This document shows positions 42,738-64,000 of a stretch of 64,000 bases of DNA, piece by piece; position 1 is the first letter of the stretch, and every line of letters starts with the position of its first letter. Where the stretch lies: contig JACRHB010000220.1 of NCBI GenBank assembly GCA_016217725.1, positions 11,970 to 75,969 of the forward strand, read 5' to 3'. Source of the stretch: Nitrospirota bacterium. Its GTDB lineage: Bacteria > Nitrospirota > Thermodesulfovibrionia > UBA6902. A program made the position numbers and the translations under genes. The notes below the pieces were generated by a model. That model saw only the letters and a list, made by a program, of their open reading frames with translations, made no database searches and was not told where the DNA came from.

Positions 42738-42943
42738 AAAATTACGTATGCCTAAGAACGGGCACATGATCAGATTTGGAGCTGGAGCACCATAAGCATA
42801 CTCATATAATCTCGTCGCTTCACATGTGACGCTGCCTGAAATATCAGGAAGCGGCTTGAGCTAACGCCGTAAAAGAAATTGCACATATCCTTCCCGGCTG
42901 CAGATATGTATATGTGACCGAGAGGGCGAAGCATTGCCGATTA

Positions 42944-48611: not shown

Positions 48612-50120
48612 ATGAACGTGATCTTGGTTCAACCCGCGACTTCGGACAGGGGATTTATTCATCTGGGATTGGGCTTTATTGCAGCCTCCCTGGAGCAAAG
48701 GGGGCATAAGGTAAGCATCCTCGATCTCGGGATAGAAGGCGAGTCCTCAAAAAAGATAAGAAGGATAATCCAGGAGGCGGCCCCGGAAGTGGCGGGGATA
48801 ACGGCGCTTACCCCTACTTATCCGACGGCGCTCAGGATGGCGCAGTTGATAAGGGAGATAAATCCCCGGTGCATAACCGTCTTCGGAGGGACTCATCCCA
48901 CTATATTGACCGAGGAGGTCCTTAATGAGCCCTTCGTGGACATTGTGGTAAGGGGCGAAGGGGAGATAACCATGTGCGAAATATTGGACGCCCTGAAGGA
49001 CGGAAAAGGCCTTTCGAGTATTTCAGGCATTGTCTATAAGGAAAACGGGAAAACGGTCTATAACCCCGACAGGCCTTTCATAGAAGACCTGGACACTCTC
49101 CCGCCGATACCCTGGCATCTCTTTAAAGTGGAAAAATATACCGGCAACCTGAACGGGAGAAGGGCGGTGGGCCTCTCCGCTGCCAGGGGATGTCCTTTCA
49201 GTTGTGTCTTTTGCTACAGAGGCCCGGCTGCCGGCAAGGTCGTAAGGTACTGGAGCCCTGAAAGGGTCGTAAAGGAGGTCAAGCGCGTTAAGGAAAAATA
49301 TAATATAACGGCCTTCCACTTCTGGAACGACGTATTTACTTACGACAAAAAGTGGGCGATCACCCTGTGCGATATGATCATAAAGGAGAAACTGGACATT
49401 GAATGGGACTGTCAGACCAGGGCGGACCTGATCAATGAGGAAGTATTGAGGAAGATGAAAGAGGCGGGCTGCACCGCGATAATGTTAGGCGTGGAGAGCG
49501 GGAGCAATGAGATCCTGAAGCACGTGAACAAGAAGCTGACCAAAGAGCAGATATATGACTCCTTCCAATTGCTCCATCAGGTGGGTTTTGAGACCACCGC
49601 AACTTTTACAATGGGTCTTCCCTGGGACACCAAAGAGACCATCCAGGAAACCATCGATTTCGCCAAGGCGATAAACCCGAGTTTTGCGATGTTCTACGTA
49701 GCCACTCCGTTCCCCGGCTCCCCCATCTGGGAGATCTGCCTTCAGAAAGGGATACCGCTTTCGAGAGACTGGGAGAATTACAGGATCATTCCTTTTGAGA
49801 TAGACCTCGATAAATTCGCCCCTGTCTTTGATACGTCCAGATTGTCCGTAGAGGATTTAAAGAGGTTCATCAAGACCGCCCAGATAGAATTTCAGGTCGG
49901 CAGATTTAAAAAGGGGCAGAGATTAAGGGGTCTGAAAAATATCTACGAGATCTTCGCCTTGATATTCAGACGGAGCAAATCGGTGACAAAGCTGATGCAA
50001 TTGATTTTCAGGGTGCTCGGGGATACGCTCTATCTCATCAGAATAAAGTGCAGAAGTGCAAAAGTGCAAAAGAGCAATAGCGCAGAAGAGCAGAAGAACA
50101 AAAGTGCAAAAGAGCAATAG
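48612..50120 (+). CDS. B12-binding domain radical SAM protein; the C-terminal tail is encoded by a word-repeat
   Basis: MNVILVQP...HLGLGFIAASLEQRGHKVSILD B12-like domain; CxxxCxxC (ARGCPFSCVFCYR); the last ~25 aa (KCRSAKVQKSNSAEEQKNKSAKEQ) read through the GTGCAGAAG repeat. Confidence 0.85.
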   Translation: MNVILVQPATSDRGFIHLGLGFIAASLEQRGHKVSILDLGIEGESSKKIRRIIQEAAPEVAGITALTPTYPTALRMAQLIREINPRCITVFGGTHPTILTEEVLNEPFVDIVVRGEGEITMCEILDALKDGKGLSSISGIVYKENGKTVYNPDRPFIEDLDTLPPIPWHLFKVEKYTGNLNGRRAVGLSAARGCPFSCVFCYRGPAAGKVVRYWSPERVVKEVKRVKEKYNITAFHFWNDVFTYDKKWAITLCDMIIKEKLDIEWDCQTRADLINEEVLRKMKEAGCTAIMLGVESGSNEILKHVNKKLTKEQIYDSFQLLHQVGFETTATFTMGLPWDTKETIQETIDFAKAINPSFAMFYVATPFPGSPIWEICLQKGIPLSRDWENYRIIPFEIDLDKFAPVFDTSRLSVEDLKRFIKTAQIEFQVGRFKKGQRLRGLKNIYEIFALIFRRSKSVTKLMQLIFRVLGDTLYLIRIKCRSAKVQKSNSAEEQKNKSAKEQ

Positions 50121-50212
50121 TGCAGCGCCGGGAAGACTGACTTTCATTGTTTTCCCTTTTGCACTTCTGCACTTTTGTACTTTTGCACTTCTGCACTTTT
50201 GTACTTTTGCAC
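50048..50212. repeat. long hairpin of GTGCAGAAG/TGCAAAAG words (left arm coding, right arm reverse complement)
   Basis: gtgcagaagtgcaaaagtgcaaaagagcaatagcgcagaagagcagaag... / ...ttttgcacttctgcacttttgtacttttgcacttctgcacttttgtacttttgcac. Confidence 0.7.
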
Positions 50213-50233
50213 TAAAGAATCAAGAAAAATTTA

Positions 50234-51448
50234 ATGGACTACAACAAATTAAAAGAAGCCGTCATCACTGAAATCGATAAGCTGGCGGAAGAGATGAAGG
50301 CCGTTGCAAAGGCCATTCATGAAAAACCCGAAATAGGTTATCAGGAATACGAAGCCTCACGGCTCCTCTGCGGCTTTCTCGAAAAAAACGATTTTAAAGT
50401 GAAGCGCAATATCGCAGGGATGGAGACGGCTTTTGCCGCCTCCTATCCTGAAAAGGCGGACGGTCCGACAATCGCCTTGTTGGCCGAATATGACGCCCTG
50501 CCCGGCCTCGGGCACGGATGCGGACATAACCTCATCGGCACTGCGAGCGTCGGGGCTGCCGTCGGATTAAGTAAGGTTTTACCGAAGCTGAAAGGAAGAA
50601 TAGCTGTAATGGGCTGTCCTGCGGAAGAGGCCGGGATAGACAACGCAGGGGGGAAGGTCCGGCTGATCAAAAAAGGATCATTCAAAGATATCGACGCCGC
50701 GTTCATCTTTCATCCCTTCCCCATGACGACGGTCGGGGGAGAGACCACAACGCTGCTCGGGCTTGAATTTAATTTTAAAGGTAACCCCGCACATGCCGCA
50801 GGAAATCCCTGGGACGGGATCAACGCGCTGGACGGTGTATTGCTGACCTTCAACGCGATCAACGCCCTCAGGCAGCATATACGCGACGGCGTGCGCATTC
50901 ACGGCATCATAACCCACGGAGGCGACGCCCCGAATATAGTGCCGGAAAAGGCGTCCGCGCGTTTCTTTCTCCGCACGGAGAATAAAGAGTCTCTGCTCGA
51001 GATAATTCAAAAGGTCAAGGCCTGCGCCGAAGGGGCGGCGACGGCGACGGGGACCAAGCTTGAGGTCAATACTTTCTGCAATCTCTATGACTCAATGAAG
51101 AGCAATTCCGTTCTCGCAAGTATCCTCGAAAAGAACCTGAACGCACTCGGCTTGAGCGTTGAAGGCAGGAAAAAGGGGAAAGGCTCCACGGATTTCGGAA
51201 ACGTGACAAGGGTTGTGCCTGCCTGCGAGCTGGGCCTCAGGCTCGGAAACGGCATCGTCCCGCACACGAGGGAGTTTTTGCACGCGGCGAATTCCGAAGA
51301 GGGCTTCAAGGTAATGATGCAGGGAGCAAAGGTGCTGGCCTTAAGCGCGCTGGACCTTCTCTACTCGGACGGCTTACTTGAGAAGGCGAAAAAGGAATTT
51401 GAAGGAGTGCAGAAGTGCAACAGTACAAAAGTGCAAAAGGAAAAATAA
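50234..51448 (+). CDS. M20-family amidohydrolase (M20D; hippurate hydrolase / aminobenzoyl-glutamate utilisation-like)
   Basis: 404 aa; ...ALLAEYDALPGLGHGCGHNLIGTASVGAA... metal-binding region; the C-terminal tail (VQKCNSTKVQKEK) is encoded by the repeat. Confidence 0.85.
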   Translation: MDYNKLKEAVITEIDKLAEEMKAVAKAIHEKPEIGYQEYEASRLLCGFLEKNDFKVKRNIAGMETAFAASYPEKADGPTIALLAEYDALPGLGHGCGHNLIGTASVGAAVGLSKVLPKLKGRIAVMGCPAEEAGIDNAGGKVRLIKKGSFKDIDAAFIFHPFPMTTVGGETTTLLGLEFNFKGNPAHAAGNPWDGINALDGVLLTFNAINALRQHIRDGVRIHGIITHGGDAPNIVPEKASARFFLRTENKESLLEIIQKVKACAEGAATATGTKLEVNTFCNLYDSMKSNSVLASILEKNLNALGLSVEGRKKGKGSTDFGNVTRVVPACELGLRLGNGIVPHTREFLHAANSEEGFKVMMQGAKVLALSALDLLYSDGLLEKAKKEFEGVQKCNSTKVQKEK

Positions 51449-51517
51449 AGAAGGACCATCTTCCGGAAGCCGGTCTTCTGAACTTTTGATCTTCTGCTCT
51501 TTTGCTCTTTTGCACTG
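51407..51517. repeat. GTGCAGAAG/TGCAAAAG word-repeat hairpin, copy 3
   Basis: gtgcagaagtgcaacagtacaaaagtgcaaaagg...tcttctgctcttttgctcttttgcac. Confidence 0.65.
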
Positions 51518-51526
51518 TTTGAAAAA

Positions 51527-52711
51527 TTGATAAAAATTTTTCTAATTGGCTGGTTCGGCGCGGGGAACGTCGGGGATGAGGCGATACTCCTTACGGAATT
51601 GTTGGCGATAAGAAACAGGATAAAGGGAGCAAGGTTTTATATTTTATCTTTTGATAAAGAGAAGACCAAAAAACTTACCGGCGAAATTTCCGAAGTCGAA
51701 AGGATCATTGAGCTCGGCGCCAAAAAGAGATTTTTTAGATCGGATTTCAGGGGGTTGCTGAGCGCGTTCAAAAATTCCGATGCGGTCGTAATAGGCGGTG
51801 GCGGCATTTTTCAGGACCTTTACAATTACTATCCGGTCCCGTTTTTTACCTTAATGGCCCTTATGGCGAGACTATTCAGGAAGCTGCTTGTGCTTCACGC
51901 CGTCGGGATAGGCCCCCTTAACAAGCTTATCAGCAGGAGATTGTGCAGGACGGCCGCCGGGCTCGCGCACATGATCTCTGTAAGGGACTTTGAATCAAAA
52001 GAGCTTTTAAAAGAAATCGGGGTAAACAAAGAGATACACGCAGCGGCGGACCCTGTCTTTTTGCTCAGGGACCTGCTCGGGGAAAAGATCGAAAGACTTA
52101 TGGACAGGCATAAAACCGGCAAAGAACGGCCCACAGTCGGGATCTGCATCCAGAACCTCCTTTCCTGGAGCCGGGATAATAAGCAGGCGCTTGCCGCTGC
52201 GCTCGACGCACTTGCAAGAGAAAGAAATACGCGCCTCGTGTTTATACCTTTCGGCGTTTACCCGGACGGATGGTTCCGAAAAGAAGATACCGAGCCTATA
52301 GACGTTATCGCCTCCAAGGAGCTGGCAGGCCTGCTGAAAAGCGAGCATTCCATTATGACGTCGCATACGACCCCCGAAGAGACCATGGCCGTTATCGGGG
52401 GGCTGGACCTTGTGATCAGCATGAGACTTCACGGAATAATCATGGGCCTCAGTATGGGTGTGCCGGTCCTCGCGCTTACATACGCCGACGAGTCAAAGAT
52501 AAGCAACCTCATGAAGCGGGTAGGGCGTGAAGAAGACGTCTTCCATGTAAACGATCTGGATGCTGAAAAATTACTGAGCAGGCTAAAAGCCGTTCTTGCA
52601 AGAAATGACGAATTCAAGAGGGACCTAAGAGAAAAGGTAATTCATTTAAAGAGGGAAGCTGAAAAAAGTTTTGAGCTATTGTCGGGAAGATTATCGCTGT
52701 CGCCCCATTAG
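51527..52711 (+). CDS. polysaccharide pyruvyl transferase family protein (CsaB/WcaK-like)
   Basis: IFLIGWFGAGNVGDEAIL...AVVIGGGGIFQD... and ...LVISMRLHGIIMGLSMGVPVLAL matching the PS_pyruv_trans family. Confidence 0.8.
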   Translation: MIKIFLIGWFGAGNVGDEAILLTELLAIRNRIKGARFYILSFDKEKTKKLTGEISEVERIIELGAKKRFFRSDFRGLLSAFKNSDAVVIGGGGIFQDLYNYYPVPFFTLMALMARLFRKLLVLHAVGIGPLNKLISRRLCRTAAGLAHMISVRDFESKELLKEIGVNKEIHAAADPVFLLRDLLGEKIERLMDRHKTGKERPTVGICIQNLLSWSRDNKQALAAALDALARERNTRLVFIPFGVYPDGWFRKEDTEPIDVIASKELAGLLKSEHSIMTSHTTPEETMAVIGGLDLVISMRLHGIIMGLSMGVPVLALTYADESKISNLMKRVGREEDVFHVNDLDAEKLLSRLKAVLARNDEFKRDLREKVIHLKREAEKSFELLSGRLSLSPH

Positions 52712-54236
52712 CCGGGACCTTCCGGGTAATTATCTGCGCGTCGGCGTAATGGTGTTTTTTTTCCCCATCGCCCTGTATCTGTTTACCCTCGCGCCGACCG
52801 TGATCTGGGGGGACAGCGCAAGGTTCGCGCTGGAAGTCAAAAACCTGTATCTCGGCTACAGCGCGGACAGCCACCCGCTTTTCATTGTGCTGGGAAAGGC
52901 CTTCTCTTTCCTGCCGTTTGAATTGGCATACAGCCTCAATCTGCTCGCAGCGGTATCGGCCTCCGCAGCGGTATTTCTCGTCTATCTTATTCTCATTGAG
53001 ATAACGCGATCTAAAATATCCGCCGTTGTCGGCGCCCTCGCCTTATGCGTATCGCATGCCTTCTGGCTCCATGCGGTAACGGCTGAAGTCTATGACCTGA
53101 ACGCGGCGTTTGTCGCGGCAGTGATATTATGCCTGCTGAAGTGGAGGAAAGACCCGGACCGCCGCGCTCCGTTATATGCTGCCGCTTTGTTATTCGGACT
53201 GGGTATGACCAACCATCGGATCATCCTGATCGATCTGATAGGCATAGTAATATTCGTGCTTGTCACAGACTTTAAAATTATCAAAAGGGGCAGGGCGCTG
53301 CTGTCGGTCTTTATTTCATTCTTCGCCGGCAGCCTTTTACTTGTCTACGTCATAATTCAGAAGATGCTTGATAAGCCCGTTACGGTAGTAGCCGACACGT
53401 TCTCCGCAGAGGGATACAAAGACGCCGTCGTCAAATATTCTCCGAAAATTCTTGAAGAGATAGGAATGTATCTTTCATACCTTTTTTATCAGTTCCCCCT
53501 TGCCGGGTTCATCCTCGGCCTTGCAGGGATTGTCGCTCTTTTCAGAAAAGATAAAAAACTCGCCCTGCTCTTTTGCCTGCTGATAATTATGAACTGGCTT
53601 CTATTATTCAAGCTCGGCCCGAGTTACGGTCATTCAAAATACACCTTCTATATCTCGGCATATACGGTCTTCTCGATATTGATCGGCTACGGTTTCTTCT
53701 CACTGAAAAATTACCTGGAGGACAAAGGGCGCTCCGTTGAGAAGCTCTCTCTTATAACGGCCGCATCAGTTGTTCTGCTGCCTGCGCTTCTTTATAATGT
53801 CACTCCGCACCTGACAAAAAGGCTCGGCATCGACCTTCTTCACGCAAGGCCGGTCCCCTACAGGGATAATGATGAATTTTTCCTGAACCCCTCAAAAAGA
53901 GGCTACACCGGGGCGGAGAGGTATGCCAAAGAAGCCTTTGAGACGGCCTCGGCAGGCTCGGTAATAATCTCGGATTATACGCCTTATACGGTGCTTAAAT
54001 ACCTGCAGGATGTAAAGGGCGTAAGGACCGACGTCCTTCTCATCAGGATCGCGGGCCACGGCGGCGTCATCCCGAAGATTTTATCCGAATACTCCGGTAA
54101 GAGAGACATATATTTGGCCGATACGGGCATTCCAAAGTCTTACAAAATGCGCTACCTGGCAAAAAAGTACGCCATCGTCCGGCAGGGCGTATTGCACAAG
54201 CTCATCCAAAAGGAAGTCCCTCCAGCTACCAATTAA
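52671..54236 (+). CDS. DUF2723/TMEM260-like GT-C fold membrane protein (probable start at MVFFF, 52749)
   Basis: ~11 TM helices; the conserved acidic first loop (VIWGDSARF) is typical of PMT/ArnT-like GT-C enzymes. Confidence 0.55.
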   Translation: MSYCREDYRCRPISRDLPGNYLRVGVMVFFFPIALYLFTLAPTVIWGDSARFALEVKNLYLGYSADSHPLFIVLGKAFSFLPFELAYSLNLLAAVSASAAVFLVYLILIEITRSKISAVVGALALCVSHAFWLHAVTAEVYDLNAAFVAAVILCLLKWRKDPDRRAPLYAAALLFGLGMTNHRIILIDLIGIVIFVLVTDFKIIKRGRALLSVFISFFAGSLLLVYVIIQKMLDKPVTVVADTFSAEGYKDAVVKYSPKILEEIGMYLSYLFYQFPLAGFILGLAGIVALFRKDKKLALLFCLLIIMNWLLLFKLGPSYGHSKYTFYISAYTVFSILIGYGFFSLKNYLEDKGRSVEKLSLITAASVVLLPALLYNVTPHLTKRLGIDLLHARPVPYRDNDEFFLNPSKRGYTGAERYAKEAFETASAGSVIISDYTPYTVLKYLQDVKGVRTDVLLIRIAGHGGVIPKILSEYSGKRDIYLADTGIPKSYKMRYLAKKYAIVRQGVLHKLIQKEVPPATN

Positions 54237-55517
54237 ATGCTGAGATCTTTATTTTTACTCAGGGAGCTTCAGAGCAATCTAAAGCTTAAAAGAGACGAAC
54301 TGGAGCGGATACAGCTCGGGAAGCTTAAGGCCTTGCTCAGGCACGCATACGAAAACGTCCGCTATTACAGAGGGCTTCTTGATTCCGCCGGTATTAAGCC
54401 CGACGACGTTCAGACCTTAAGCGACCTCCGTCTAATTCCCGTAACGGAGAAGGCCGCGTTGCGAAAGCTGGACTTGCAGGAGAAGACCGCAGGGAACATA
54501 GACGTCAAAGCTTGTGTGAAAGTCTTTACAAGCGGCTCCACCGGCATGCCGACACATATCTATTTCACCCGTTATGACCATCTCATGATCGATATGGTGT
54601 ATTTAAGGTCTTTCCTTGTAAACGGGCTCCGGTTCAGGGACAAGAGGGCGTTCATACTCGACCCCCACAGCTTCGAGACAAAAAAATGCTGGTACCACCG
54701 CCTGGGATTGGCCGCATACGAAAACATCTCCTGTTTTACCGACGCCGGGGAGCAGCTGGAGAGGCTGAGGCGCATTCAGCCTGATTTTATCCACGGATAC
54801 CCGTCAAGCCTGGCGCTCATAGCCCGCCTGATGCTTGAAAAAGGGACCAAGGACGTAAGACCGCGCCTGGTCTCGACGTCAGCAGAGCTCCTTCATCAAA
54901 AACAGAGGGAGACGATCAACGCCGCCTTCGGCATAAGTCTCTATGACAGGTACGCCGCAAGGGAATGCGGCAATATCGCATGGGAATGCGACAGGCATGA
55001 CGGATACCATATAAACATCGACACTTCGGTAGTGGAGATCATCAGAGACGACAAGCCCGCCGGATACGGAGAGCCCGGCGACGTAATTGTCACGAACCTC
55101 CATTCATATGCAATGCCTTTTATCAGATATAAGATCGGCGACATAGGCGCTTTGTCCGACCGAACCTGTCCGTGCGGCGTCGAAACGCCTCTGATGCGGA
55201 CCGTCGAAGGAAGGGACGAAGACTTCATCATACTTAAAGACGGGAGGCTCATATCCCCTATGATGGTGACGGGCACCCTCGATTATGTGCCGGGCATACG
55301 ACAGTTCAGAGTGGTTCAGGAAAGCATGGACGTCGTAACTGCGCTCCTTGCAAAAGGCGACGGCTTTGCGCCCGAAACCGTAGATAAGGCGAAGGAGAGC
55401 CTGAGAGAGATATTCGGCAGCGGTATCGAGATAAGGTGCAGCGCGGTCGAAGAGCTCCCGGGAGAGAATAATGGAAAAGTGCGGGCGGTGCTTTCAAAGG
55501 TGCGTGAAACAAATTAG
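54237..55517 (+). CDS. phenylacetate-CoA ligase-like adenylate-forming enzyme (PaaK / CapK / coenzyme F390 synthetase family)
   Basis: 426 aa; P-loop-like FTSGSTGMPT; N-terminal YENVRYYRGLLDSAGIKPDDVQTLSDLRLIPVTEK matches the PaaK-family N-terminus; paralog at 60206..61510. Confidence 0.8.
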   Translation: MLRSLFLLRELQSNLKLKRDELERIQLGKLKALLRHAYENVRYYRGLLDSAGIKPDDVQTLSDLRLIPVTEKAALRKLDLQEKTAGNIDVKACVKVFTSGSTGMPTHIYFTRYDHLMIDMVYLRSFLVNGLRFRDKRAFILDPHSFETKKCWYHRLGLAAYENISCFTDAGEQLERLRRIQPDFIHGYPSSLALIARLMLEKGTKDVRPRLVSTSAELLHQKQRETINAAFGISLYDRYAARECGNIAWECDRHDGYHINIDTSVVEIIRDDKPAGYGEPGDVIVTNLHSYAMPFIRYKIGDIGALSDRTCPCGVETPLMRTVEGRDEDFIILKDGRLISPMMVTGTLDYVPGIRQFRVVQESMDVVTALLAKGDGFAPETVDKAKESLREIFGSGIEIRCSAVEELPGENNGKVRAVLSKVRETN

Positions 55518-55579
55518 CTGCATCCGGCAACGGAGCTGTTTTTATGATAATAAAATCAAGCTGAACAAATAACCGCGAT

Positions 55580-56863
55580 ATGAAAATTCTATTAATAAAA
55601 CCCGATCAATTAAATGCAAACGGAGATAAACTGGGAATGAAGACGCCCATGAGGACCCTGAACCTTCCTTATCTGGCTGCTTTGACACCCCGTGAAATTA
55701 CCGTTGAAATAGTCGATGACAGCATGGAGGAAATAAATTTCACCGGCGCTTATGACTTCATAGGCATAACGGCAATGACAGGTCAGGCGACCAGGGCCTA
55801 TCAAATAGCCGATAAATTCAGAGAGAAAGGCCGGAAAGTCATAATGGGCGGCATTCACGCCACCGCGCTTCCGGAGGAGGCGCTTCAACACTGCGATTCC
55901 GTTGTTATCGGGGAAGTGGAGAATTTATGGAAAGACATTCTTGAAGATTTCAGATCGGGAAAACCTGAACAGATTTATAAAGCGGAACAGTTGGCCGATC
56001 TCAGGAGCTTGCCGATGCCGAGGTATGAGCTCCTCAAACAGAAGAAATTCTTTTCTCCTTTTGTCCCGATCCAGGCGACCAGGGGATGTCCTCATAATTG
56101 CAATTTCTGCGCTGTAAGCACATATTACGGCAATAAATACCGGTTCCGGCCGGTAGAAGACGTGGTAAAAGAAATAGTCGGCTCCGGTTATAAAAAATTT
56201 TATTTTTGCGATGACAATATTACGGCGAATAGAAAATATTCGCGCGAATTATTTAAGGCCCTGATACCTCTCAAGATAAACTGGGTGGGCCAGTCTACGG
56301 TAAACCTGGGGAGGGACGAGGAGCTTTGTAAATTGGCGGCGGCGAGCGGCTGCCACTTCATGTGTCTCGGGATAGAGAGCGTGGATCAGGATAATCTCAT
56401 ATCCATGAACAAGGGATGGAGCAAGGTTTCGGATTTCCACGTCTTATTGAACAACATGCGCAGAAACGGCTTGAGCTTTGTCCTGAACATGATCGTAGGG
56501 TTTGATAAGGACGACAACAAGGTGTTCTCAAAGATATATGATTTTTCAATGGAGTGCAAGACATTTTTTCTTGCATTGAATACCCCGATCCCGTATCCCG
56601 GGACGAAATTTGCGCAGGAGCTGGAGGATAACGGGAGGCTTTTACATAAAGACTGGTCGAAATACGTGCAGGGCGGCATAGTCTACAAATTGCAAAACAT
56701 GGATCCTGAGGAGCTGAGAGACGGTTATTGGAGGCTTCTGCGGAAATTCTTCTCTATAAGATCCATCTTGATAAGAGCGGGCGGACAGCCTCTGCATAAT
56801 CTGGCTTTTTATTTTGACAGGAATATCGGCACATACCTGTCTGTGAAGAAAGGGCGGTATTAG
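55580..56863 (+). CDS. B12-binding domain radical SAM protein
   Basis: KILLIKP...LNLPYLAAL...; CxxxCxxC (TRGCPHNCNFCAV). Confidence 0.85.
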   Translation: MKILLIKPDQLNANGDKLGMKTPMRTLNLPYLAALTPREITVEIVDDSMEEINFTGAYDFIGITAMTGQATRAYQIADKFREKGRKVIMGGIHATALPEEALQHCDSVVIGEVENLWKDILEDFRSGKPEQIYKAEQLADLRSLPMPRYELLKQKKFFSPFVPIQATRGCPHNCNFCAVSTYYGNKYRFRPVEDVVKEIVGSGYKKFYFCDDNITANRKYSRELFKALIPLKINWVGQSTVNLGRDEELCKLAAASGCHFMCLGIESVDQDNLISMNKGWSKVSDFHVLLNNMRRNGLSFVLNMIVGFDKDDNKVFSKIYDFSMECKTFFLALNTPIPYPGTKFAQELEDNGRLLHKDWSKYVQGGIVYKLQNMDPEELRDGYWRLLRKFFSIRSILIRAGGQPLHNLAFYFDRNIGTYLSVKKGRY

Positions 56864-57023
56864 AGCCAATTTGTAGAAATTTGCGGCTGATATCTTTTCC
56901 TCCTGCTGGTTCAATCTTGTAGATTGAACCAACCGTTTAACAGACATTAAATATAAAGGTTCAAACTACAAGCCTGAACCAGCAGAGTCGGCTGTTAGCT
57001 GATAGCTGTCAGCTTTTTACATC

Positions 57024-58637
57024 ATGAGCATATTCTCCAACATCCCTGTCTTATACAAACACTACAAGGCCACCTCCGCCATATTGAGGAAGGTCTTTAA
57101 ATATCCTTTAACGCCCGACAAGAGCGGGCAGATAATTGCGGACAGGCTCAGCAGGCGGAATGAAAATTTTCTTGAGACCGTGGAGAAGACGATATATGCT
57201 TTCCCCTCGAGTCCGTACAGGCTGCTCCTGGAGCGCGCCGGGTATGGGTTTCAGGACATATATAAGCTCGTGATGACGAAAGGGCTCGAAGACACCCTCG
57301 GGGATTTATATTCAAAAGGGGTCTACATCGACATATTGGAATTCAAGGGCAAGAAAACAGCGGTGAGAGGTGATTCGAGCTTCAATTTCAAAGAGAAGGA
57401 TTTCTCCAACCCTCTGCTTACAACGGGACTGGACACAAAGAGCGGCGGCACGAGGAGCGCGGGCACGAGCATTGTGGTTCCCCTTGAGTACATTGAGCAG
57501 CATAACGCTTACGGCGTATTTGCCGCCCGTGAAAACAATATGATGAAGAACCCGGCCGTCATCTGGCTTCCCATCCTGCCTGCCGGTGAAGGCCTGTTCT
57601 TCAACCTGAGGTTTGCGGCAATGGGCAACCCGCCCGTGAAATGGTTTTCACAGGTCGACGAAAAATACATAAAGCCCTCCATGACCGACAAGCTGAAGAC
57701 AAAGACCTCGATATGGACTGCTGCGTTTTACGGCAAAAAGATACCGGCGCCGGAGTTCGTAGACATGAGGAAGACGGTGAGCATTGCGCGATGGATGAAC
57801 GGGAATCTCGGTAAGGCAGCCGGCTTCTCGGTGGTGACATATGCAAGCTCCGCGCTCCGGCTGATAACCGAGGCGAAGAAACATGATCTCAGGCTCGGGG
57901 AAACGGCCTTCTGGCTGATGGGCGAGCCGCTGACCGATAAAATATCGGATGAGATCAGGGATTTCGGGTGCAGGGCGTATTCGCTTTACGGCTGCAACGA
58001 GCTGATGATAATAGGGCAGGGCTGCGCAAACCCTCGCGAGCCCGACGACATGCATTTCTGCAAGGACAAGCTCGCGGTCCTTCAGCGCAAAACAGAAGTA
58101 GAGCATTCCGACGTCTCCGTCGATGCGTTTTACTTCTCGACGATATTGAAATCCAGCCCGAAGATATTCCTCAACACCCAGACCGGAGATTATGGAGTGA
58201 TCGAAAAAAGGAGCTGCGGCTGCGGCTTTGAAAAGCTCGGTTTCACCGAGCACATACACACCGTGAGGAGCTTTGAAAAACTCACTGCGGAGGGCGCGAC
58301 CTTTATCGGCAGCGACCTTATCCCGCTCGTGCAAAAGATCCTGCCTTCGGAATTCGGCGGCGACGCAACGGACTATCAATTCGTGGAGGAGCCGGATGAA
58401 AGCGGCTTCCCCAGGCTCTTCATACTGGTAAACCCCGACCTGGGCGAGCTTGACGATACCAAAATGAAAGCGCTGGTGTTTGAGACCATGGGCGCGGGGG
58501 AATATTCGCATGCGTACTCAAGGTCCTACTGGAGCCAGGCGGACACTGTCCGGATAAAAAGGGAGCATCCGATACCGACCGCGCGCGGGAAGATAGTCCC
58601 GCTGCACATAAGAAAAAAAACTGGAGGGAATTCTTGA
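57024..58637 (+). CDS. hypothetical protein, possibly a divergent adenylate-forming enzyme (PaaK/LuxE/GH3-like)
   Basis: 537 aa; ...DTKSGGTRSAGTSIVVP... resembles the Ser/Thr/Gly-rich AMP-binding P-loop; otherwise unassigned. Confidence 0.4.
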   Translation: MSIFSNIPVLYKHYKATSAILRKVFKYPLTPDKSGQIIADRLSRRNENFLETVEKTIYAFPSSPYRLLLERAGYGFQDIYKLVMTKGLEDTLGDLYSKGVYIDILEFKGKKTAVRGDSSFNFKEKDFSNPLLTTGLDTKSGGTRSAGTSIVVPLEYIEQHNAYGVFAARENNMMKNPAVIWLPILPAGEGLFFNLRFAAMGNPPVKWFSQVDEKYIKPSMTDKLKTKTSIWTAAFYGKKIPAPEFVDMRKTVSIARWMNGNLGKAAGFSVVTYASSALRLITEAKKHDLRLGETAFWLMGEPLTDKISDEIRDFGCRAYSLYGCNELMIIGQGCANPREPDDMHFCKDKLAVLQRKTEVEHSDVSVDAFYFSTILKSSPKIFLNTQTGDYGVIEKRSCGCGFEKLGFTEHIHTVRSFEKLTAEGATFIGSDLIPLVQKILPSEFGGDATDYQFVEEPDESGFPRLFILVNPDLGELDDTKMKALVFETMGAGEYSHAYSRSYWSQADTVRIKREHPIPTARGKIVPLHIRKKTGGNS

Positions 58638-58638
58638 C

Positions 58639-60057
58639 ATGAAGATAACGTTGGTATATCCGGGGATCGCGCAGATCGGCTTCGGCAGCTTCGGCCGTGG
58701 CACGCCGACTACGAACCTTATGAGCCTCGGCCTCGGCTATCTCGGGGCGTCTATAAAAAAGAATACAAAACACGAAGTAGACGTCCTAGACCTGAGGAAG
58801 ATGAAGGGATGGGATGACTTCGGCAGGGAGCTGAAAGAGAGGTCGTGCGACATTGCCGGCATTTACACGAATACGGTTAACTTCGAATATGCGATGAAGT
58901 GCGCGGAAATCACCCATAAGATGGGCAAGACGGTAATTGCCGGAGGCCCCCACGCAACGCTCGCCCCTCAGGAGCTTCTCGATACGGGCCACGTCGACCA
59001 CGTCATCACGGGTGAAGCCGAGTTTACCATCGTTGACGTGCTTGAAAAATTTGACAGGGGTCTCGGGATGGAAAAAATTATCCAGGGTCAGCCCGTGGAA
59101 AACCTTGACGAGCTGCCGTTTCCGGACAGGGACCTGTTCAATCTGGACAAACGTCTCAAATACCTTCCGGGCATATTCCCCTTCCCTCCGAGATACGCGG
59201 GCGTGCTTGCGAGCAGGGGCTGCGGCTTCAACTGCAAGTTCTGTCAGCCCCTTGAAAGGAAGATTTTCGGCAAGAGGCTTAAATTTCGCTCTGTAGACAA
59301 CATCATAAAGGAAGTCGCGCAGTTGAAAGAGCGCTACGGCGTCGAGTTCATCATGTTCCAGGACGACCAGCTTACGCAGAACAGGGAATGGGTGCTCGAC
59401 CTGAGCGCCGAGATGAAAAAAGTAGGCATAGACTGGGGCGCGCTCGCAAGGGTGGATACGATAAACGAGCACGTGGTCAAGAGCATGAAGGAGGCGGGAT
59501 GTCTCGTGCTCCAGTTCGGCTTTGAAAGCGGCTCGCAGAAGATACTCGACTTCCTGAGGAAGAGGGCCGGGGTCGAGCAGGCGGTAGAGGCGGCAAGGCT
59601 CTGCCATGAAAACGGCGTGCTCATCTTTGCGAATTATATGATGGGCATCCCGACCGAGACAGAGGAAGACGTTGAAGCGACTTACGAGCTTATGAAAAAA
59701 ATTAACCCTGAGATCCATGCGCTGAGCTATTTCTCACCGATACCTGGAAGCGACCTCTACGATTACTGCAAGGAAAGAGACCTGATAAACGTGACTTCTT
59801 ACGACATGTATGCGCGGGGCGCCGTCGAGAACAAGCTGAAAGGGATAGATTACAAGGCGCTCGACCGTATGAAGAAGAAGATCGAAAAATGCACCCCCGC
59901 ATGGTATCAGGAGAGCTATTACGCCTCATGCGTTATGAAACGGTGGAGGAAGCTCGCAAAACAGGGGCATACCGTACACATGATAAAGGAGCTCGTGACC
60001 CACACGCCTATGCTCGACAGTACGGTGGGGGCGGTCTACAGGATGGTGAAAAGATAG
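58639..60057 (+). CDS. B12-binding domain radical SAM protein
   Basis: ITLVYPGIAQIG...LMSLGLGYLGASIKK...; CxxxCxxC (SRGCGFNCKFCQP). Confidence 0.85.
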   Translation: MKITLVYPGIAQIGFGSFGRGTPTTNLMSLGLGYLGASIKKNTKHEVDVLDLRKMKGWDDFGRELKERSCDIAGIYTNTVNFEYAMKCAEITHKMGKTVIAGGPHATLAPQELLDTGHVDHVITGEAEFTIVDVLEKFDRGLGMEKIIQGQPVENLDELPFPDRDLFNLDKRLKYLPGIFPFPPRYAGVLASRGCGFNCKFCQPLERKIFGKRLKFRSVDNIIKEVAQLKERYGVEFIMFQDDQLTQNREWVLDLSAEMKKVGIDWGALARVDTINEHVVKSMKEAGCLVLQFGFESGSQKILDFLRKRAGVEQAVEAARLCHENGVLIFANYMMGIPTETEEDVEATYELMKKINPEIHALSYFSPIPGSDLYDYCKERDLINVTSYDMYARGAVENKLKGIDYKALDRMKKKIEKCTPAWYQESYYASCVMKRWRKLAKQGHTVHMIKELVTHTPMLDSTVGAVYRMVKR

Positions 60058-60064
60058 AGTTGTT

Positions 60065-60165
60065 ATCCCCTCTCCCTTGATGGGAGAGGGTTAGGGGGAG
60101 GGTGAATCAACAGAATGTCTGAATCACCCTCCCCTTAATCCCCTCCCATCAAGGGAGGGGAAAAG
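60065..60165. repeat. CCCCTC/GAGGGG hairpin-cluster repeat, copy 4 (~45-bp arms)
   Basis: cccctctcccttgatgggagagggttagggggagggtgaatcaacagaatgtctgaatcaccctccccttaatcccctcccatcaagggagggga. Confidence 0.7.
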
Positions 60166-60205
60166 ATAAGAGACACATAGGAACGTCTGCGGAATTGAAG
60201 TTAAA

Positions 60206-61510
60206 ATGATCCTCAACTCCCTCCGACAGTTAAAGCATTTGAAAAAGAATCAGTACCTCTCCACATCGGAGCTAAGGTCGCTTCAGGAAGAGAAGCTGAG
60301 GAATATCGTCGCGCATGCTTACAAAAACGTCCGCTACTACCGGAGGCTTTTTGACGGCGCGGGGATCAGGCCGGACGATATCAGGACGCTCGACGACCTA
60401 TGCAAAATTCCCATCACGACAAAAAAAGACCTGCAGGGTTTGAAGCAGGAGGAGATAGTCTCCGGAGGCGCTGATATGGATAAATGCGTGGTCAAATACA
60501 CGAGCGGCTCCACGGGGCAGCCGTTAAAAATATTCCTGAGCCCCGGAGAGAGGGATTACCAAATCTTGCTTAACCTCCGCATACTCATGGAGAACGGCCT
60601 GCGCCTGACGGACAAGGTGGCTTATCTCATCAACCCTTACAGGTTCCCCAAATCGAAATTCTGGTTTCAGCGCTCGGGTATACTGAGGCGTGAATATCTC
60701 TCCGTATTCGATTACCCTGAAAAACACGCGGCGCTTCTTATGAGAATGAAGCCGGACGTGCTTTACGGTTATCCTTCAAACCTGACGCTTCTGGCGCTGC
60801 ATATAAAGGAAAATGCAATTAACGAGATCCGTCCCAGGCTCGTCTTTTCCGTCGCAGAGGCGCTTGAGCCGAATGCGAGGAAGGCGATAGACTCGATAAT
60901 GAACGTCAGTACCTGTGATATTCTCGGGACCATAGAAATCGGAGACATCGCATGGCAATGCGAAGCGCGCAGCGGCTATCACGTCAGCGCGGATGCGGCG
61001 CTTGTCGAATTCCTGAAAGACGACGGCAGGCCTGCGGGTCCGGGCGAAGAAGGCAAGCTGATCTGCACAAGCCTTTACGGTTACACCATGCCCCTTATAC
61101 GCTATGCCGTCAACGACATATGCGTGCCGTCAGACAGGACCTGCTCCTGCGGGAGGACGCTGCCTATGATGGAGAGTATAAAGGGACGCGCCAACGACTT
61201 CATCATACTGCCCGACGGGAAGGTGATCGCCTCGTGCTTCCTTGTAATAATCATGCAGGCCTTTCACGACGTGGCGCAGTACCGGATAGTGCAGGAAGAT
61301 AAGGCGAGGCTGATCGTGAGCCTTGTGAAGGGAAAGGATTTCAACGCGCGCACGCCGGACCTGATACGGAAGGAGATCGACAGGATCACCGGAAACGCGC
61401 TCAGGGTGGATATGGAGATATTGGATGAATTGCCGAGAGACAAGAGCGGGAAGATAAGGACGGTCGTTTCGAAGGTCATCCCCGGCATGCAGGAGAAGAT
61501 CAGCGTTTAA
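60206..61510 (+). CDS. phenylacetate-CoA ligase-like adenylate-forming enzyme (PaaK/CapK family), paralog 2
   Basis: YTSGSTGQPLK P-loop; N-terminal YKNVRYYRRLFDGAGIRPDDIRTLDDLCKIPITTKKDL, parallel to 54237..55517. Confidence 0.8.
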   Translation: MILNSLRQLKHLKKNQYLSTSELRSLQEEKLRNIVAHAYKNVRYYRRLFDGAGIRPDDIRTLDDLCKIPITTKKDLQGLKQEEIVSGGADMDKCVVKYTSGSTGQPLKIFLSPGERDYQILLNLRILMENGLRLTDKVAYLINPYRFPKSKFWFQRSGILRREYLSVFDYPEKHAALLMRMKPDVLYGYPSNLTLLALHIKENAINEIRPRLVFSVAEALEPNARKAIDSIMNVSTCDILGTIEIGDIAWQCEARSGYHVSADAALVEFLKDDGRPAGPGEEGKLICTSLYGYTMPLIRYAVNDICVPSDRTCSCGRTLPMMESIKGRANDFIILPDGKVIASCFLVIIMQAFHDVAQYRIVQEDKARLIVSLVKGKDFNARTPDLIRKEIDRITGNALRVDMEILDELPRDKSGKIRTVVSKVIPGMQEKISV

Positions 61511-61575
61511 TTGATTATTTGCCACAGAGAACACAGAGGACACAGAGGAAAATAGAAGATGAGCGCGTGCAGAGA

Positions 61576-61619
61576 TACCCTCTCCCTTGACGGGAGAGGG
61601 TTAGGGAGAGGGTGAATCA
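61576..61619. repeat. CCCTCTCCC/GGGAGAGGG hairpin (single arm of the family) plus upstream (ACAGAGGA)n tandem words at 61522-61550
   Basis: accctctcccttgacgggagagggttagggagagggtgaatcat. Confidence 0.6.
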
Positions 61620-63138
61620 TTGGTGGGCATCAGGAAAAATGAATAGAGGCATATTATTCGGCGGTGTTGCCGTATTGGTCCTTGCGGTCTTCTATCCCGT
61701 CATCGACAGTTTTTTTGTCACCGACGACATGCGGTTGATATATATCTCTTCCCCGATTTCATCGCAAGGCATAACGGATTTCTTTTCTTCCTCCGGAGGA
61801 TGGTTCGCAGGGTTTTACAGGCCGCTCATAAGGACGGCCTTCTTCGTCGATTATTCGTTATATAACTTGAACCCGGCCGGTTATCACATAACCAACCTGC
61901 TGTTTCATATCGCCTCTGCAATAATCGTATTTTACCTTGCAAGGCTTTTGACGGGCAGTGAAAAGACGGGGGCCTTCGCAGCCTTCATCTTCGCCGTGCA
62001 GCCGCTTCACACAGAGGCGGTGTCATGGATTTCGGGCCGGGGGGACGTGATGTTTACTTTTTTTTACCTCGCCGCTCTGTTAAGCTTTCTCAAGTTCAAA
62101 TCGGACGAAGACGGGGAAAAGCCTTATCTTGTCTTATCCGTTATCTGTTTTATACTTTCTTTACTGGCAAAAGAATCGGCGGTTACCCTGCCCGTCATGC
62201 TCTTTCTGACAGAATGGCTCTACAACCGCCGGGCCCCGGATAATACACGTCACGGGATAAAATTCGCGCATCACGCGCCTTTTGTTTTTGTTCTCATCCT
62301 CTACGCCCTCTTTAAATATTTTTTTATCGGGGGCGGCATGTATGACCATGGGATCGGGACCATTACGTTTCTGAGAACGGTATATCATTTCTTTCAACTG
62401 TTCGCGCCGGTAAATATCGACACCTTTAGATTCGGCAACATGCCCGGCTTTATCCTTAATTCAATAATTGTATTGAACCTCGCAGTCCTGCTGTTTGCAT
62501 ATCTGTATTTATGCCGCAATAAAAAAGGGGCGCTGCCTCTCTTTGCATACTGCGCCCTATGGCTGGTGATAACGTCCTTCCCTCTGTACTTTGTGCCGGG
62601 AGTAAGGTTCCTGTATGTTTCATCGGTCGCATCTTCCATTCTCATGGGCGTTATCCTGACCGGGCTAGCGGGCGCCGTGAAAGAGCGGCGCACGAAGGTC
62701 CCGGCGGTTTTAGTCCCCCTGCTGATTCTCAGCATAATTCTCACCTCTTCCGTCAGGACCTTTCAGAGGAACGGCATCTATGATTACGCCGGCGGCATTG
62801 CGGAAAGGGCGCTGGCTCAATTGAAAGATAAACATCCGGAATTCCCCGCGGGCTCCGTTCTTTATTGCATAAATTTCCCGCAGGACTGGGTGCGGGATAC
62901 CGAGGCGTGGGTCAAGCCCATCCCGGTAATGAGCATGGCGGTCAAGGTGAAATACGCGAATGATTCCCTGATCGTGCACGGCGCAATAAAAGGGCTCTCA
63001 ACTTTTGAAGAGAAGCTGGAGTTCCTCGAGAAAAATTCCCTGCGCAAGCACGTAGAGGAAGGCAGGAGCATATACGTTTTCGAGTACAAGGACGGCAGCG
63101 TAATCGAGACGACGGGGCTTTTCAGAAAAGAGATATGA
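61612..63138 (+). CDS. GT-C fold membrane protein (PMT/ArnT-like) with a soluble C-terminal domain
   Basis: 508 aa; ~10 TM; acidic first-loop motif (FFVTDDMRL) characteristic of GT-C family 39/83 enzymes. Confidence 0.55.
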   Translation: MNHWWASGKMNRGILFGGVAVLVLAVFYPVIDSFFVTDDMRLIYISSPISSQGITDFFSSSGGWFAGFYRPLIRTAFFVDYSLYNLNPAGYHITNLLFHIASAIIVFYLARLLTGSEKTGAFAAFIFAVQPLHTEAVSWISGRGDVMFTFFYLAALLSFLKFKSDEDGEKPYLVLSVICFILSLLAKESAVTLPVMLFLTEWLYNRRAPDNTRHGIKFAHHAPFVFVLILYALFKYFFIGGGMYDHGIGTITFLRTVYHFFQLFAPVNIDTFRFGNMPGFILNSIIVLNLAVLLFAYLYLCRNKKGALPLFAYCALWLVITSFPLYFVPGVRFLYVSSVASSILMGVILTGLAGAVKERRTKVPAVLVPLLILSIILTSSVRTFQRNGIYDYAGGIAERALAQLKDKHPEFPAGSVLYCINFPQDWVRDTEAWVKPIPVMSMAVKVKYANDSLIVHGAIKGLSTFEEKLEFLEKNSLRKHVEEGRSIYVFEYKDGSVIETTGLFRKEI

Positions 63139-63368: not shown

Positions 63369-64000
63369 ATGCCGATTGACCAAAAAGACGGCGGGAGGAA
63401 GTATTCCGTCCTGCTCGCAATATTGATATTGTTTCACGTGACAAGCAATTTGATAATCGTGACCGCAGACAATACTCCGCTGCTCTGGGACGGGGGCGAT
63501 TACTTTTACAAGAGCCTGAAATATTATGACGTCTTTAGAAACTTCGACTCCGGCTTCTTTTCGAGGTTCAATGACGTAAGCCATTACAGACCGCCTCTGC
63601 TTATGCTTACGTCGCTGCCTCTTTATGCCGTATTCGGCAGGTCGGTCGACACGGCTATCATGACCAACACGCTTTATCTCATAATCCTCGTGCTTTCGGT
63701 TTACGGGCTCGGCAGGAGGCTGTATAGCAATGAGGTCGGCTTTTTGTCCGCCGTCCTGGTCATGTTTTTCCCCATCATCTTCGGCTTGAGCAGGTCGTAC
63801 TGGCAGGATTTCCCTGTTACCGCGATGGTCTCACTCAGTGTGTATCTGCTCCTGAGGACCGATTATTTCAGATGCAGAAAATACTCCCTGCTCTTCGGCA
63901 TATCGTTAGGCCTCGGCATGCTTACGAAGTGGATCCATTTTGTATTTCTGACAGGCCCTTTCCTTTACATTTTATTTCTGTCGTTGAAGCAGGACGTAAA
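63369..64000 (+). CDS. GT-C fold membrane glycosyltransferase (ArnT/PMT_2-like), 5' partial (runs off the window)
   Basis: AAAGGAG RBS 11 nt upstream of ATG 63369; open frame to the window end; TM helices and a ...WDGGDYFY... first-loop acidic motif. Confidence 0.55.
   Translation, partial: MPIDQKDGGRKYSVLLAILILFHVTSNLIIVTADNTPLLWDGGDYFYKSLKYYDVFRNFDSGFFSRFNDVSHYRPPLLMLTSLPLYAVFGRSVDTAIMTNTLYLIILVLSVYGLGRRLYSNEVGFLSAVLVMFFPIIFGLSRSYWQDFPVTAMVSLSVYLLLRTDYFRCRKYSLLFGISLGLGMLTKWIHFVFLTGPFLYILFLSLKQDV

Follow-up and report, generated by a model that had tools for sequence, protein, structure and literature searches.

Pyruvylation of secondary cell wall polymers and exopolysaccharides relies on transferases of the PF04230 family, such as CsaB, WcaK and EpsO. 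A gene of this family (PS_pyruv_trans, with CsaB as the best model) lies among membrane glycosyltransferases in a 64,000-nucleotide stretch of a Nitrospirota genome (assembly GCA_016217725.1, contig JACRHB010000220.1, positions 11,970 to 75,969), hereafter the window. It belongs to an interval, 48612-63138, which a sequence-only reading had described as a 15-kb cluster of class-B radical S-adenosylmethionine (SAM) enzymes, PaaK/CapK-like adenylating enzymes, an M20 amidohydrolase, a pyruvyl transferase and membrane glycosyltransferases of the GT-C fold. Related loci add a Wzx-type flippase to this likeness. However, the transferase stays under the cut-off of the CsaB model (TIGR03609, 175 against 213 bits), and the operon holds no S-layer homology (SLH) proteins, TagA/TagO-type genes or Wzy; family scans of the window likewise found no SLH-domain gene. 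To our knowledge, ANL ligases, class-B radical SAM enzymes, a metal importer and a proteasome-fold pair occur in none of the described pyruvylation loci.

The resemblance to peptidoglycan synthesis (MurA, MurB, MurC-F, MurJ) and to the synthesis of the F420 side chain is one of analogy only. The shared logic would be that of a carboxylate derived from phosphoenolpyruvate (PEP) on a carrier-bound sugar, flavin reduction, stepwise ATP-dependent amide ligations and flipping, whereas no enzyme of the operon is homologous to MurA-F and its ligases are of the ANL and not the Mur type. No described system matches the operon. We find that 48612-63138 is the distal two-thirds of a single long same-strand operon, which exceeds 20 kb, runs beyond the end of the window and is conserved among uncultured anaerobes. 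The most likely function of the cluster is to attach amino-acid-like and methyl groups to a cell-surface sugar polymer.

Extent and conservation of the operon

Relatives of the locus were gathered through exact-protein look-ups and scans of genomes and metagenomes, and were annotated with the window proteins. Their loci, labelled L001, L086, L122 and so on, are those that bear homologues of unk537, a 537-residue product of the operon (Table 1), and they come from metagenome-assembled genomes (MAGs) of Nitrospirota, 'Deltaproteobacteria' and other groups. Pfam and NCBIfam were used for the family scans, with equivalog cut-offs as given by the NCBIfam models. The content beyond 64 kb was deduced from L001, L004 and L122 (unk537 orthologue 92% identical).

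The recurring operon, whose orthologues are at least 47% identical to the window proteins, starts with genes for an Ig-like protein, NikR, CbiM(PDGLE), CbiQ, CbiO, a 239-aa protein, a nitroreductase and a 238-aa protein. These are followed by a radical SAM enzyme (rSAM1) in some loci, the M20 amidohydrolase, the pyruvyl transferase, a TMEM260-type GT-C in some loci, the ligase CapK1, then unk537, rSAM3 and/or other radical SAM enzymes, and the ligase CapK2. The downstream end in relatives is of two types, consisting either of GT-C, UbiA, DUF362, PMT_2 and Phosphodiest/Sulfatase genes, or of genes for a Wzx-type flippase, an alpha/beta hydrolase, a radical SAM enzyme and an M14 peptidase. Fifteen loci show the upstream side, and 13 of them carry the same-strand block from importer to ligase, L085 and L096 being variants; across the loci sharing this gene order the unk537 orthologue is 52-92% identical. 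Because the same order recurs in so many orthologous loci, the arrangement is not due to chance, and the interval 48612-63138 therefore represents the distal part of an operon that starts near 42-43 kb.

The ORF listing returned the ten open reading frames (ORFs) of 48612-63138 at the coordinates and in the order that the sequence-only reading had given, all on the plus strand, and the families it assigned agree with the Pfam and NCBIfam domain scans. Its extent of 15 kb proved wrong, as the conserved unit reaches at least from cbiM (43112), and probably from 42027, past the window end. Parts of the operon had thus been overlooked: the nickel/cobalt importer of the energy-coupling factor (ECF) type, the link to NikR, the nitroreductase and the proteasome-fold pair formed by the 239-aa and 238-aa proteins, all of which vary less than the GT-C genes do. 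The short gaps between genes that it reported hold for the relatives (8-60 bp), while those in the window measure 60-230 bp and are filled by dispersed palindromic repeats. Promoter and terminator scans gave counts no higher than in shuffled sequence.

No account of the operon, the unk537 family or the proteasome-fold pair was found in the family libraries and the literature searched. Literature searches on CapK together with radical SAM enzymes and pyruvyl transferase, or on F390 synthetase together with polysaccharide, gave nothing relevant. Among the matches listed, every genome carrying the operon is a MAG, which makes the cluster a defined target for heterologous reconstitution.

A longer version of the operon was seen in the deltaproteobacterial locus L002, where it continues (14851-21365) with genes for a full-length HypF-like carbamoyltransferase, a GT2, a solute-binding protein, an AIR-synthase-family (HypE/PurM-like) protein and a radical SAM/SPASM enzyme. 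This extension suggests that the same product may also undergo carbamoyl or cyano chemistry.

Table 1. Features of the operon and of its repeat-bearing gaps (window coordinates; AF2, AlphaFold2)
Feature	Coordinates	Strand	Evidence and remarks
His-rich Ig-like protein, HypB-like N-terminus	40705..41526	+	paralogue of 42027-42737; listed as context
Ig-like (FlgD_ig/Big_7-like) protein	42027..42737	+	weak Pfam matches
nikR remnant, pseudogene with internal deletion	42748..42910	+	tblastn with L122 NikR
CbiM/NikM-type ECF S-component with C-terminal PDGLE domain	43112..44134	+	PF01891 208 bits, PF13190
ECF T-component CbiQ	44136..45065	+	PF02361; TIGR02454 154 bits, cut-off 112
ECF ATPase, CbiO type	45118..45999	+	ABC_tran; ECF_ATPase and cbiO models below cut-off
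Proteasome-fold paralogue, 239 aa	46170..46889	+	no Pfam/NCBIfam match
FMN nitroreductase-family protein	46880..47557	+	PF00881 106 bits
Proteasome beta-like Ntn hydrolase, 238 aa	47684..48400	+	AF2 model, pLDDT 85
Class-B radical SAM, orthogroup 1 (rSAM1)	48612..50120	+	PF02310 83 bits, PF04055 99 bits, CPFSCVFC
M20D amidohydrolase (HmrA/PM20D2-like)	50234..51448	+	TIGR01891 216 bits, cut-off 154
Polysaccharide pyruvyl transferase family, CsaB-like	51527..52711	+	PF04230 141 bits, cut-off 25
GT-C membrane glycosyltransferase, TMEM260/DUF2723 type	52671..54236	+	PF11028 81 bits, about 9 hydrophobic segments
PaaK/CapK-type ANL ligase 1 (CapK1)	54237..55517	+	P-loop TSGSTGMP; C-terminal NGK
Class-B radical SAM, orthogroup 2 (rSAM2)	55580..56863	+	PF04055 59 bits, PF02310 41 bits, CPHNCNFC
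unk537, PaaK-fold adenylating enzyme, 537 aa	57024..58637	+	AF2 model; no Pfam/NCBIfam match
Class-B radical SAM, orthogroup 3 (rSAM3)	58639..60057	+	PF04055 94 bits, PF02310 51 bits, CGFNCKFC
PaaK/CapK-type ANL ligase 2 (CapK2)	60206..61510	+	P-loop TSGSTGQP; C-terminal SGK
Polytopic membrane protein, probable GT-C	61612..63138	+	about 10 hydrophobic segments
PMT_2-type GT-C, 5' part	63369..64000	+	PMT_2 51 bits, PMT 38 bits; leaves window
Repeat-bearing gaps, first part	42937-43095, 46000-46169, 47558-47683, 48388-48611, 50038-50233		
Repeat-bearing gaps, second part	51397-51526, 56864-57023, 60058-60205, 61575-61619, 63145-63333		
Further repeat copies	4461-4550, 5524-5575, 12954-12999, 39624-39729		

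Enzymes of a putative envelope-glycan pathway

Glycan hallmarks are present both in the window (PS_pyruv_trans, the TMEM260-like GT-C and the PMT_2 GT-C) and in the relatives (UbiA, PMT_2, Phosphodiest/Sulfatase, GT2, Polysacc_synt flippase and Asn synthase). GT-C enzymes use polyprenyl-phosphate sugars. Distant homologues of unk537 sit in classical polysaccharide loci with Wzx, GT2, GT4, UDP-GlcNAc 2-epimerase and FemAB-like genes. An envelope glycoconjugate is thus indicated by the pyruvyl transferase, the GT-C genes, a tail of UbiA, PMT_2 and phosphodiesterase genes or of Wzx, and the surroundings of distant unk537 homologues. The proposal of envelope or lipid-linked glycoconjugate synthesis, already made from the sequence, was borne out to the extent that the ends of orthologous clusters hold PMT_2 GT-C, UbiA, alkaline-phosphatase-type transferases, GT2s or Wzx-type flippases. 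We therefore tentatively favour a pathway in which a lipid-linked envelope glycan is tailored in the cytoplasm, flipped and then transferred by GT-C enzymes, and hold this reading with a confidence that falls just short of even.

From the gene content, folds, orthology and synteny of the operon we infer the chemical steps, the substrate and the metal, and the order of the steps follows the analogy of MurA-F/MurJ and of the F420 side-chain pathway. The CsaB-like transferase would act on the cytoplasmic face and place a pyruvyl or enolpyruvyl carboxylate from PEP onto a sugar of a polyprenyl-phosphate-linked precursor, and the nitroreductase may reduce an enolpyruvyl ether, in the way that MurB and the C-terminal domain of FbiB work in their own pathways. 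CapK1, unk537 and CapK2 could then adenylate carboxylates and make amide or ester links to amino-acid-like units, while one to three class-B radical SAM enzymes would alter unactivated carbons, most probably by methylation. Trimming or editing of the appendages is the presumed task of the M20D amidohydrolase and of the proteasome-fold pair with its putative Ser nucleophile. After flipping, for which some relatives have the Wzx-type flippase, GT-C enzymes would transfer or extend the product in the periplasm.

The three membrane proteins that would perform the last step differ in how firmly they can be assigned, and local hhalign comparisons among them were not significant. The TMEM260-type gene was listed with a TTG start, its true start probably being further downstream (orthologues have 462-522 aa). 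As to 61612-63138, read as a GT-C from the sequence, its polytopic nature was corroborated and GT-C identity is likely, its PMT score being sub-threshold (20.2 against 22.7 bits) and its hhalign match to PMT_2 not significant (E 0.06); homologues are found in L001, L087, L090, L093 and L096. The further GT-C that the sequence-only reading saw from 63369 onwards is supported by its PMT_2 match, with full-length orthologues in L001 and L084 and a length of 676-677 aa in relatives. No Wzx flippase, Wzy polymerase or initiating transferase is encoded in the window, and the Wzx-type flippase occurs only in the relatives L085, L086, L094-L096, L099 and L104. The M20D amidohydrolase is nearest to the dipeptidase-type enzymes HmrA (PDB 3ram, 279 bits) and PM20D2 (216 bits), with an M20_dimer match of 44 bits.

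The operon has three PaaK-type ligases, one of which, unk537, is very divergent according to its predicted structure. Ligases 1 and 2 (426-434 aa) are 39% identical to each other, and ligase 1 matches the PaaK-type ligases of the PDB (2y27, 2y4n, 4r1m) at E 1e-28 to 1e-22. With the PaaK/CapK branch of the ANL superfamily (PF27533, COG1541; 2y27, 4r1m) the ligases share the fold, the P-loop and the C-terminal catalytic lysine, and orthologues of the PaaK/CapK-like ligases bear the PF27533 domain CapK_C. The NCBIfam matches of ligases 1 and 2 to PaaK, DVU_1553 and F390 models all remain under threshold. A catabolic paaK accompanied by paaABCDE had been named beforehand as a finding that would speak against an envelope role. 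The two ligases score 116 and 128 bits with the PaaK equivalog TIGR02155 (cut-off 646), and a window-wide scan of ORFs of at least 150 aa showed neither paaABCDE nor any other paa gene. They are not phenylacetate-CoA ligases, and a catabolic PaaK was rejected on equivalog score and gene context.

The AlphaFold2 model of unk537, built from a 28-sequence alignment (pLDDT 86, pTM 0.86), matches PaaK1 (2y27, 2y4n) and BT_0428, a Bacteroides acyl-CoA ligase (4r1m), with Foldseek E values of 1e-15 to 2e-16 at 12-14% identity, the wider ANL superfamily coming next in the match list. The alignment keeps the loop SGGTRSAGT with invariant G141, the motifs GEPLT and YG..E, and a C-terminal RGK with invariant K523; all three ligases thus retain a glycine/serine-rich P-loop motif, in a variant form in unk537, and the C-terminal catalytic lysine. 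Since the fold is of the PaaK type and these motifs correspond to those of the ANL core, the label 'adenylating-like' given to 57024-58637 from the sequence was right, and unk537 defines a new PaaK-fold family. It differs from PaaK/CapK enzymes in being 100 residues longer, in its P-loop, in a hinge RSFEKLT in place of GRxDD and in having no family model. The family comprises 395 database clusters, with a functional name on none of the 120 listed, and has 341 matching stretches in a one-genome-per-species collection, where none of those listed is functionally named.

An additional arrangement was noticed around distant unk537 homologues (35-42% identical), downstream of which come porphobilinogen synthase (ALAD, 450 bits), glutamyl-tRNA reductase and a short protein resembling UbiD. 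The module occurs among L020-L083 (e.g., L057 9971-15216, L070 8509-16159 and L026 9965-15200), in about 33 loci of Acidobacteriota, Spirochaetota, Verrucomicrobiota, Fibrobacterota, Dormiibacterota, Actinomycetes and others, and lies inside polysaccharide loci with Wzx, GT2, GT4, FemAB-like, UDP-GlcNAc 2-epimerase and amine oxidase genes. It suggests a glycan decoration derived from aminolevulinate (ALA) or pyrrole; literature searches found nothing on an ALAD/glutamyl-tRNA reductase module in polysaccharide loci.

Four class-B radical SAM enzymes had been counted in 48612-63138, yet the interval contains only three. The fourth (35389-36873; PF02310 88 bits against a cut-off of 32 bits, motif CPFKCIYC) lies on the minus strand outside the unit and has no orthologue in any related operon. 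The three operon genes share with characterised class-B enzymes the N-terminal B12-binding domain and the CxxxCxxC radical SAM core, and in all three both domains score above the Pfam thresholds (32 bits for PF02310). Conceivable reactions are methylation, the most probable one, ring chemistry and dehydration. Their best models are BchE and HpnJ, and their best solved relatives AprD4, 9ccb, TokK and OxsB, but the scores are far under equivalog level (HpnJ 213 against 578 bits), with the best values across subfamily models (BchE, HpnJ, HpnR, PhpK, BzaD, Mmp10-like and others) at 91-215 bits against cut-offs of 360-750, and the orthogroups are specific to the operon. The most constant of them, rSAM3, directly follows unk537 and has orthologues 51-91% identical in 15 listed loci. 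Orthologues of rSAM1 (64-71% identical) occur in L001, L002, L006, L086 and L099. As to rSAM2, its orthologues (57-60%) in L006, L086 and L099 are placed elsewhere in the locus, and it is not found in the closest relatives, which marks it as accessory.

The positions of radical SAM genes shift between loci. A twice-repeated pairing of B12-dependent radical SAM enzyme and PaaK had been taken for a duplicated functional module, and comparison of the radical SAM enzymes had been proposed as a way of telling tandem duplicates from distinct subfamilies. The four enzymes are pairwise 24-33% identical, and those of the operon form three old, distinct orthogroups conserved at 51-91%, so the tandem-duplicate module was rejected; the adjacency of CapK1 and rSAM2 is specific to this genome, as rSAM2 is elsewhere or absent in relatives.

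ANL ligases and class-B radical SAM enzymes are common in natural-product clusters, and the nearest solved radical SAM enzyme, AprD4, acts in aminoglycoside biosynthesis. The operon could on these grounds make a soluble, antibiotic-like secondary metabolite, or else activate phenylacetate for catabolism, two scenarios that the sequence-only reading had itself named as ones that would speak against it. We regard either as very unlikely, as neither the window nor the relatives contain PKS, NRPS or paaABCDE genes, the PaaK equivalog is not reached, and the membrane GT-C, flippase and phosphodiesterase content indicates the envelope.

Several observations weigh against the tailoring of a lipid-linked envelope glycan. 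The part of the operon that lies in the window lacks an initiating phosphoglycosyl transferase, Wzy, Wza and nucleotide-sugar genes, and the GT-C genes are missing in L005, L086, L099 and L104. The invariant core, from importer to radical SAM, has no glycan signature of its own. PMT/TMEM260-type GT-C enzymes can act on proteins and not on glycans alone. With every enzyme below equivalog level, no substrate can be assigned, and among the matches listed no identifiable host of the operon is cultured and no product has been assigned. We also know of no precedent for a NikR-linked importer and a proteasome-fold pair in glycan loci. The main weakness is that the invariant importer and proteasome-fold pair are explained loosely, while the GT-C genes are variable.

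If the favoured reading is correct, the operon would represent a new family of envelope glycoconjugate pathways that combines cobalamin-dependent radical chemistry with three adenylating ligases, one of them from a family that has no Pfam or NCBIfam model despite its 341 genome matches. It would also be the first case of a proteasome-fold enzyme pair that serves biosynthesis and not degradation, and would show a pathway for a surface polymer linked to nickel and cobalt uptake physically and probably in its regulation too. The setting would be that of subsurface anaerobes relying heavily on nickel and cobalt enzymes.

Metal importer, nitroreductase and proteasome-fold pair

The S, T and A components of the ECF importer are adjacent, and both CbiM (NF005598, 403 bits, cut-off 401) and CbiQ exceed NCBIfam cut-offs. 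The listed ORF of cbiM starts at 43046; the likely start is the ATG at 43112, which gives the N-terminus M-H-I. This N-terminus, the fused PDGLE domain, CbiQ and the ATPase are those of NikR-regulated Nik(MN)QO/CbiMNQO importers, and in relatives nikR stands directly 5' of the importer. Two differences set the locus apart: the biosynthetic operon that the importer heads exceeds 20 kb, and nikR is a remnant in this genome. The importer would supply cobalt for cobalamin cofactors, or tie expression to nickel status via NikR.

An intact nikR precedes cbiM in L005, L086, L099 and L122, that is, in all four relatives in which the region is visible. In the window, residues 79-127 of L122 NikR align to 42779-42910 (tblastn, 41% identity, E 5e-4) and residues 1-15 to 42748-42792, and a palindromic repeat adjoins the remnant. 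A GT[GA]TTACGAA box between nikR and cbiM is common to the relatives with nikR and absent in the window. A search for a NikR operator gave no clean palindrome, and we treat the box as a lead only. It may be that the operon is deregulated here, with nikR reduced to a remnant and the box missing.

Two Ig-like genes lie upstream. One, 42027-42737, shares 55% identity with the gene that comes first in L086 and L099 and has an equal position in L122; in relatives an Ig-like gene is kept directly upstream of nikR. The other, 40705-41526, fuses an Ig-like domain to an N-terminal H/D/E repeat of about 35 residues that resembles, in translation, the tracts of HypB or of the nickel-storage protein Hpn. 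It has weak HypB_prefix and Big_7 matches and 23% identity to the gene 5' of nikR in L086 and L099, and it is probably metal-binding.

This His-rich protein, the importer within the operon in 13 of 15 loci and nikR directly 5' of cbiM in four relatives (a remnant in the window) are also what one would expect of a metallophore-like small molecule for nickel or cobalt, whose amide chelator would be built by the ligases, tailored by radical SAM enzymes and hydrolases and exported by the MOP flippase under NikR control. ANL ligases such as DdaG form small amides, ligase 2 has a weak DdaG match, and the GT-C genes are dispensable in L005, L086, L099 and L104, where the flippase or other genes replace them. 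We nevertheless consider a metallophore unlikely. CbiM/NikM ECF systems take up metals as free ions rather than as chelates, and the pyruvyl transferase, GT-C, UbiA, PMT_2 and phosphodiesterase genes would be unaccounted for. In addition, the flippases are of the Polysacc_synt/Wzx type, and the Pfam and NCBIfam scans revealed no known metallophore enzyme family. A combined scheme would be a unit responding to nickel or cobalt limitation, in which the importer is expressed together with enzymes for a novel envelope-bound, amino-acid-decorated and C-methylated glycopeptide-like polymer, or for an exported chelator, that captures or buffers these metals at the cell surface, a dedicated Ser-nucleophile proteasome-fold complex acting as a biosynthetic amidase and not in protein degradation; we think this improbable.

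The nitroreductase is present in all 13 full loci and remains under the cut-offs of BluB (70 against 150 bits) and of the FbiB C-terminal domain (63 against 250 bits). BluB is its top NCBIfam match, rSAM1 matches BzaD, the importer is annotated as CbiM/Q/O, and the pathway relies on cobalamin enzymes throughout. Together these features recall cobamide (B12) remodelling, in which cobalt import, a BluB-like nitroreductase and BzaD-like radical SAM enzymes for the lower ligand would be combined with an amidohydrolase and ligases that swap the nucleotide-loop linker. This is the least probable of the explanations considered, close to dismissal, since the BluB score and that of BzaD (140 against 450 bits) lie below their cut-offs, no cob/cbi biosynthetic gene was found and the regulator is NikR. 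An Rfam scan of the whole window gave no match, hence no cobalamin riboswitch. The pyruvyl transferase, GT-C, flippase and proteasome-fold pair would have no part in such remodelling.

The model of the 238-aa protein matches 20S proteasome subunits with Foldseek E 3e-11 and TM 0.74 (Mycobacterium proteasome). Across the ten aligned locus orthologues the N-terminus reads M-S-L-T, Ser replacing Thr1, and D18 and K38, the equivalents of proteasome Asp17 and Lys33, are invariant; no propeptide is present. The M-S-L-T start and the conserved Asp and Lys indicate a Ser-nucleophile hydrolase of the N-terminal nucleophile (Ntn) class without a propeptide. The PF00227 score of the window protein (18.4 bits) is under the cut-off of 22.4, and about half of its orthologues carry a precomputed PF00227 match. 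The 239-aa protein is related to it (BLASTP E 1e-7; hhalign 96.6% probability over the C-terminal 86 columns) but has a variable position 2 among orthologues and no conserved N-terminal nucleophile, so that, as far as its sequence tells, it is probably an alpha-like, inactive partner. The two families count 34 (238-aa) and 8 (239-aa) database clusters, and their placeable members share contigs with unk537 orthologues.

With the 20S beta subunit, HslV, Anbu and BPH the pair shares the Ntn fold, the Asp17/Lys33-like pair and an alpha/beta-like pairing with a nucleophile-less paralogue. It differs in having Ser for Thr and no propeptide, in lying in a biosynthetic operon that encodes no ATPase partner for it, and in belonging to a family so far found only here.

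A proteasome fold with a conserved Ser nucleophile, together with M14 peptidases in L005 and L086 and the Ig-like proteins conserved at the operon head, raises the question of whether the target is a protein or peptide, methylated by the radical SAM enzymes, extended with acyl or aminoacyl groups by the ligases, processed by the proteasome-fold, M20 and M14 enzymes, and O-glycosylated by the PMT/TMEM260 proteins. Characterised PMT, PMT_2 and TMEM260 members are protein O-mannosyltransferases, and the radical SAM enzymes have sub-cut-off matches to models of methyltransferases acting on peptides that are synthesized by ribosomes and modified after translation (RiPPs) and on methyl-coenzyme M reductase (MCR). 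Still, such protein modification seems to us a poor candidate. There is no conserved small precursor ORF, the gaps in the window consisting of repeats and those in relatives of 8-60 bp only. No RiPP recognition element (RRE) or PqqD domain occurs in the operon, and the PqqD fusion at 36905-39313 lies outside it on the other strand. A sequence check found no signal peptide on the Ig-like proteins at the operon head, and the GT-C enzymes could therefore not reach them.

Intergenic repeats and neighbouring features

Dispersed palindromic or short-period repeats fill nearly every gap of the operon in the window, whereas the relatives are without such insertions. The cbiMQO genes are bracketed by a 122-nt inverted repeat pair, an element of about 190 nt flanks exactly 48612-63138, and an 8-nt periodic repeat provides the final codons of the rSAM1 ORF (the last 17 or so) and of the M20 ORF. 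The direct repeats flanking 48612-63138 were considered as ends of a mobile element and rejected, as they are intergenic repeats with partial copies elsewhere and the genes of relatives do not have them. A RiPP precursor within the gaps was rejected as well, the gaps being dispersed repeats that the relatives lack.

Upstream of the operon, the fourth class-B radical SAM gene adjoins a gene for a PqqD-radical SAM/SPASM protein fused to an arsenite-methyltransferase-like domain (35389-39313, minus strand; the fusion itself, 36905-39313, reaches 249 bits with NF008823 against a cut-off of 263). The two may form an organoarsenical or peptide-modifying pair of their own that has no relation to the operon. 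The low-GC (35-41%) region 24468-33777, with HATPase_c_4/HTH, SNF2 helicase, DndB-like, radical SAM and AAA_14/DUF4143 ATPase genes, looks like an acquired defence island. Finally, 17230-23558 encodes a 506-aa processive-type GT2, a MetA-like outer-membrane protein, a TPR protein, a 676-aa protein without a family match and a 236-aa GT2. It is a possible second glycan-related group, and the polyprenyl-phosphate sugars that the GT-C enzymes need could come from the 236-aa GT2.

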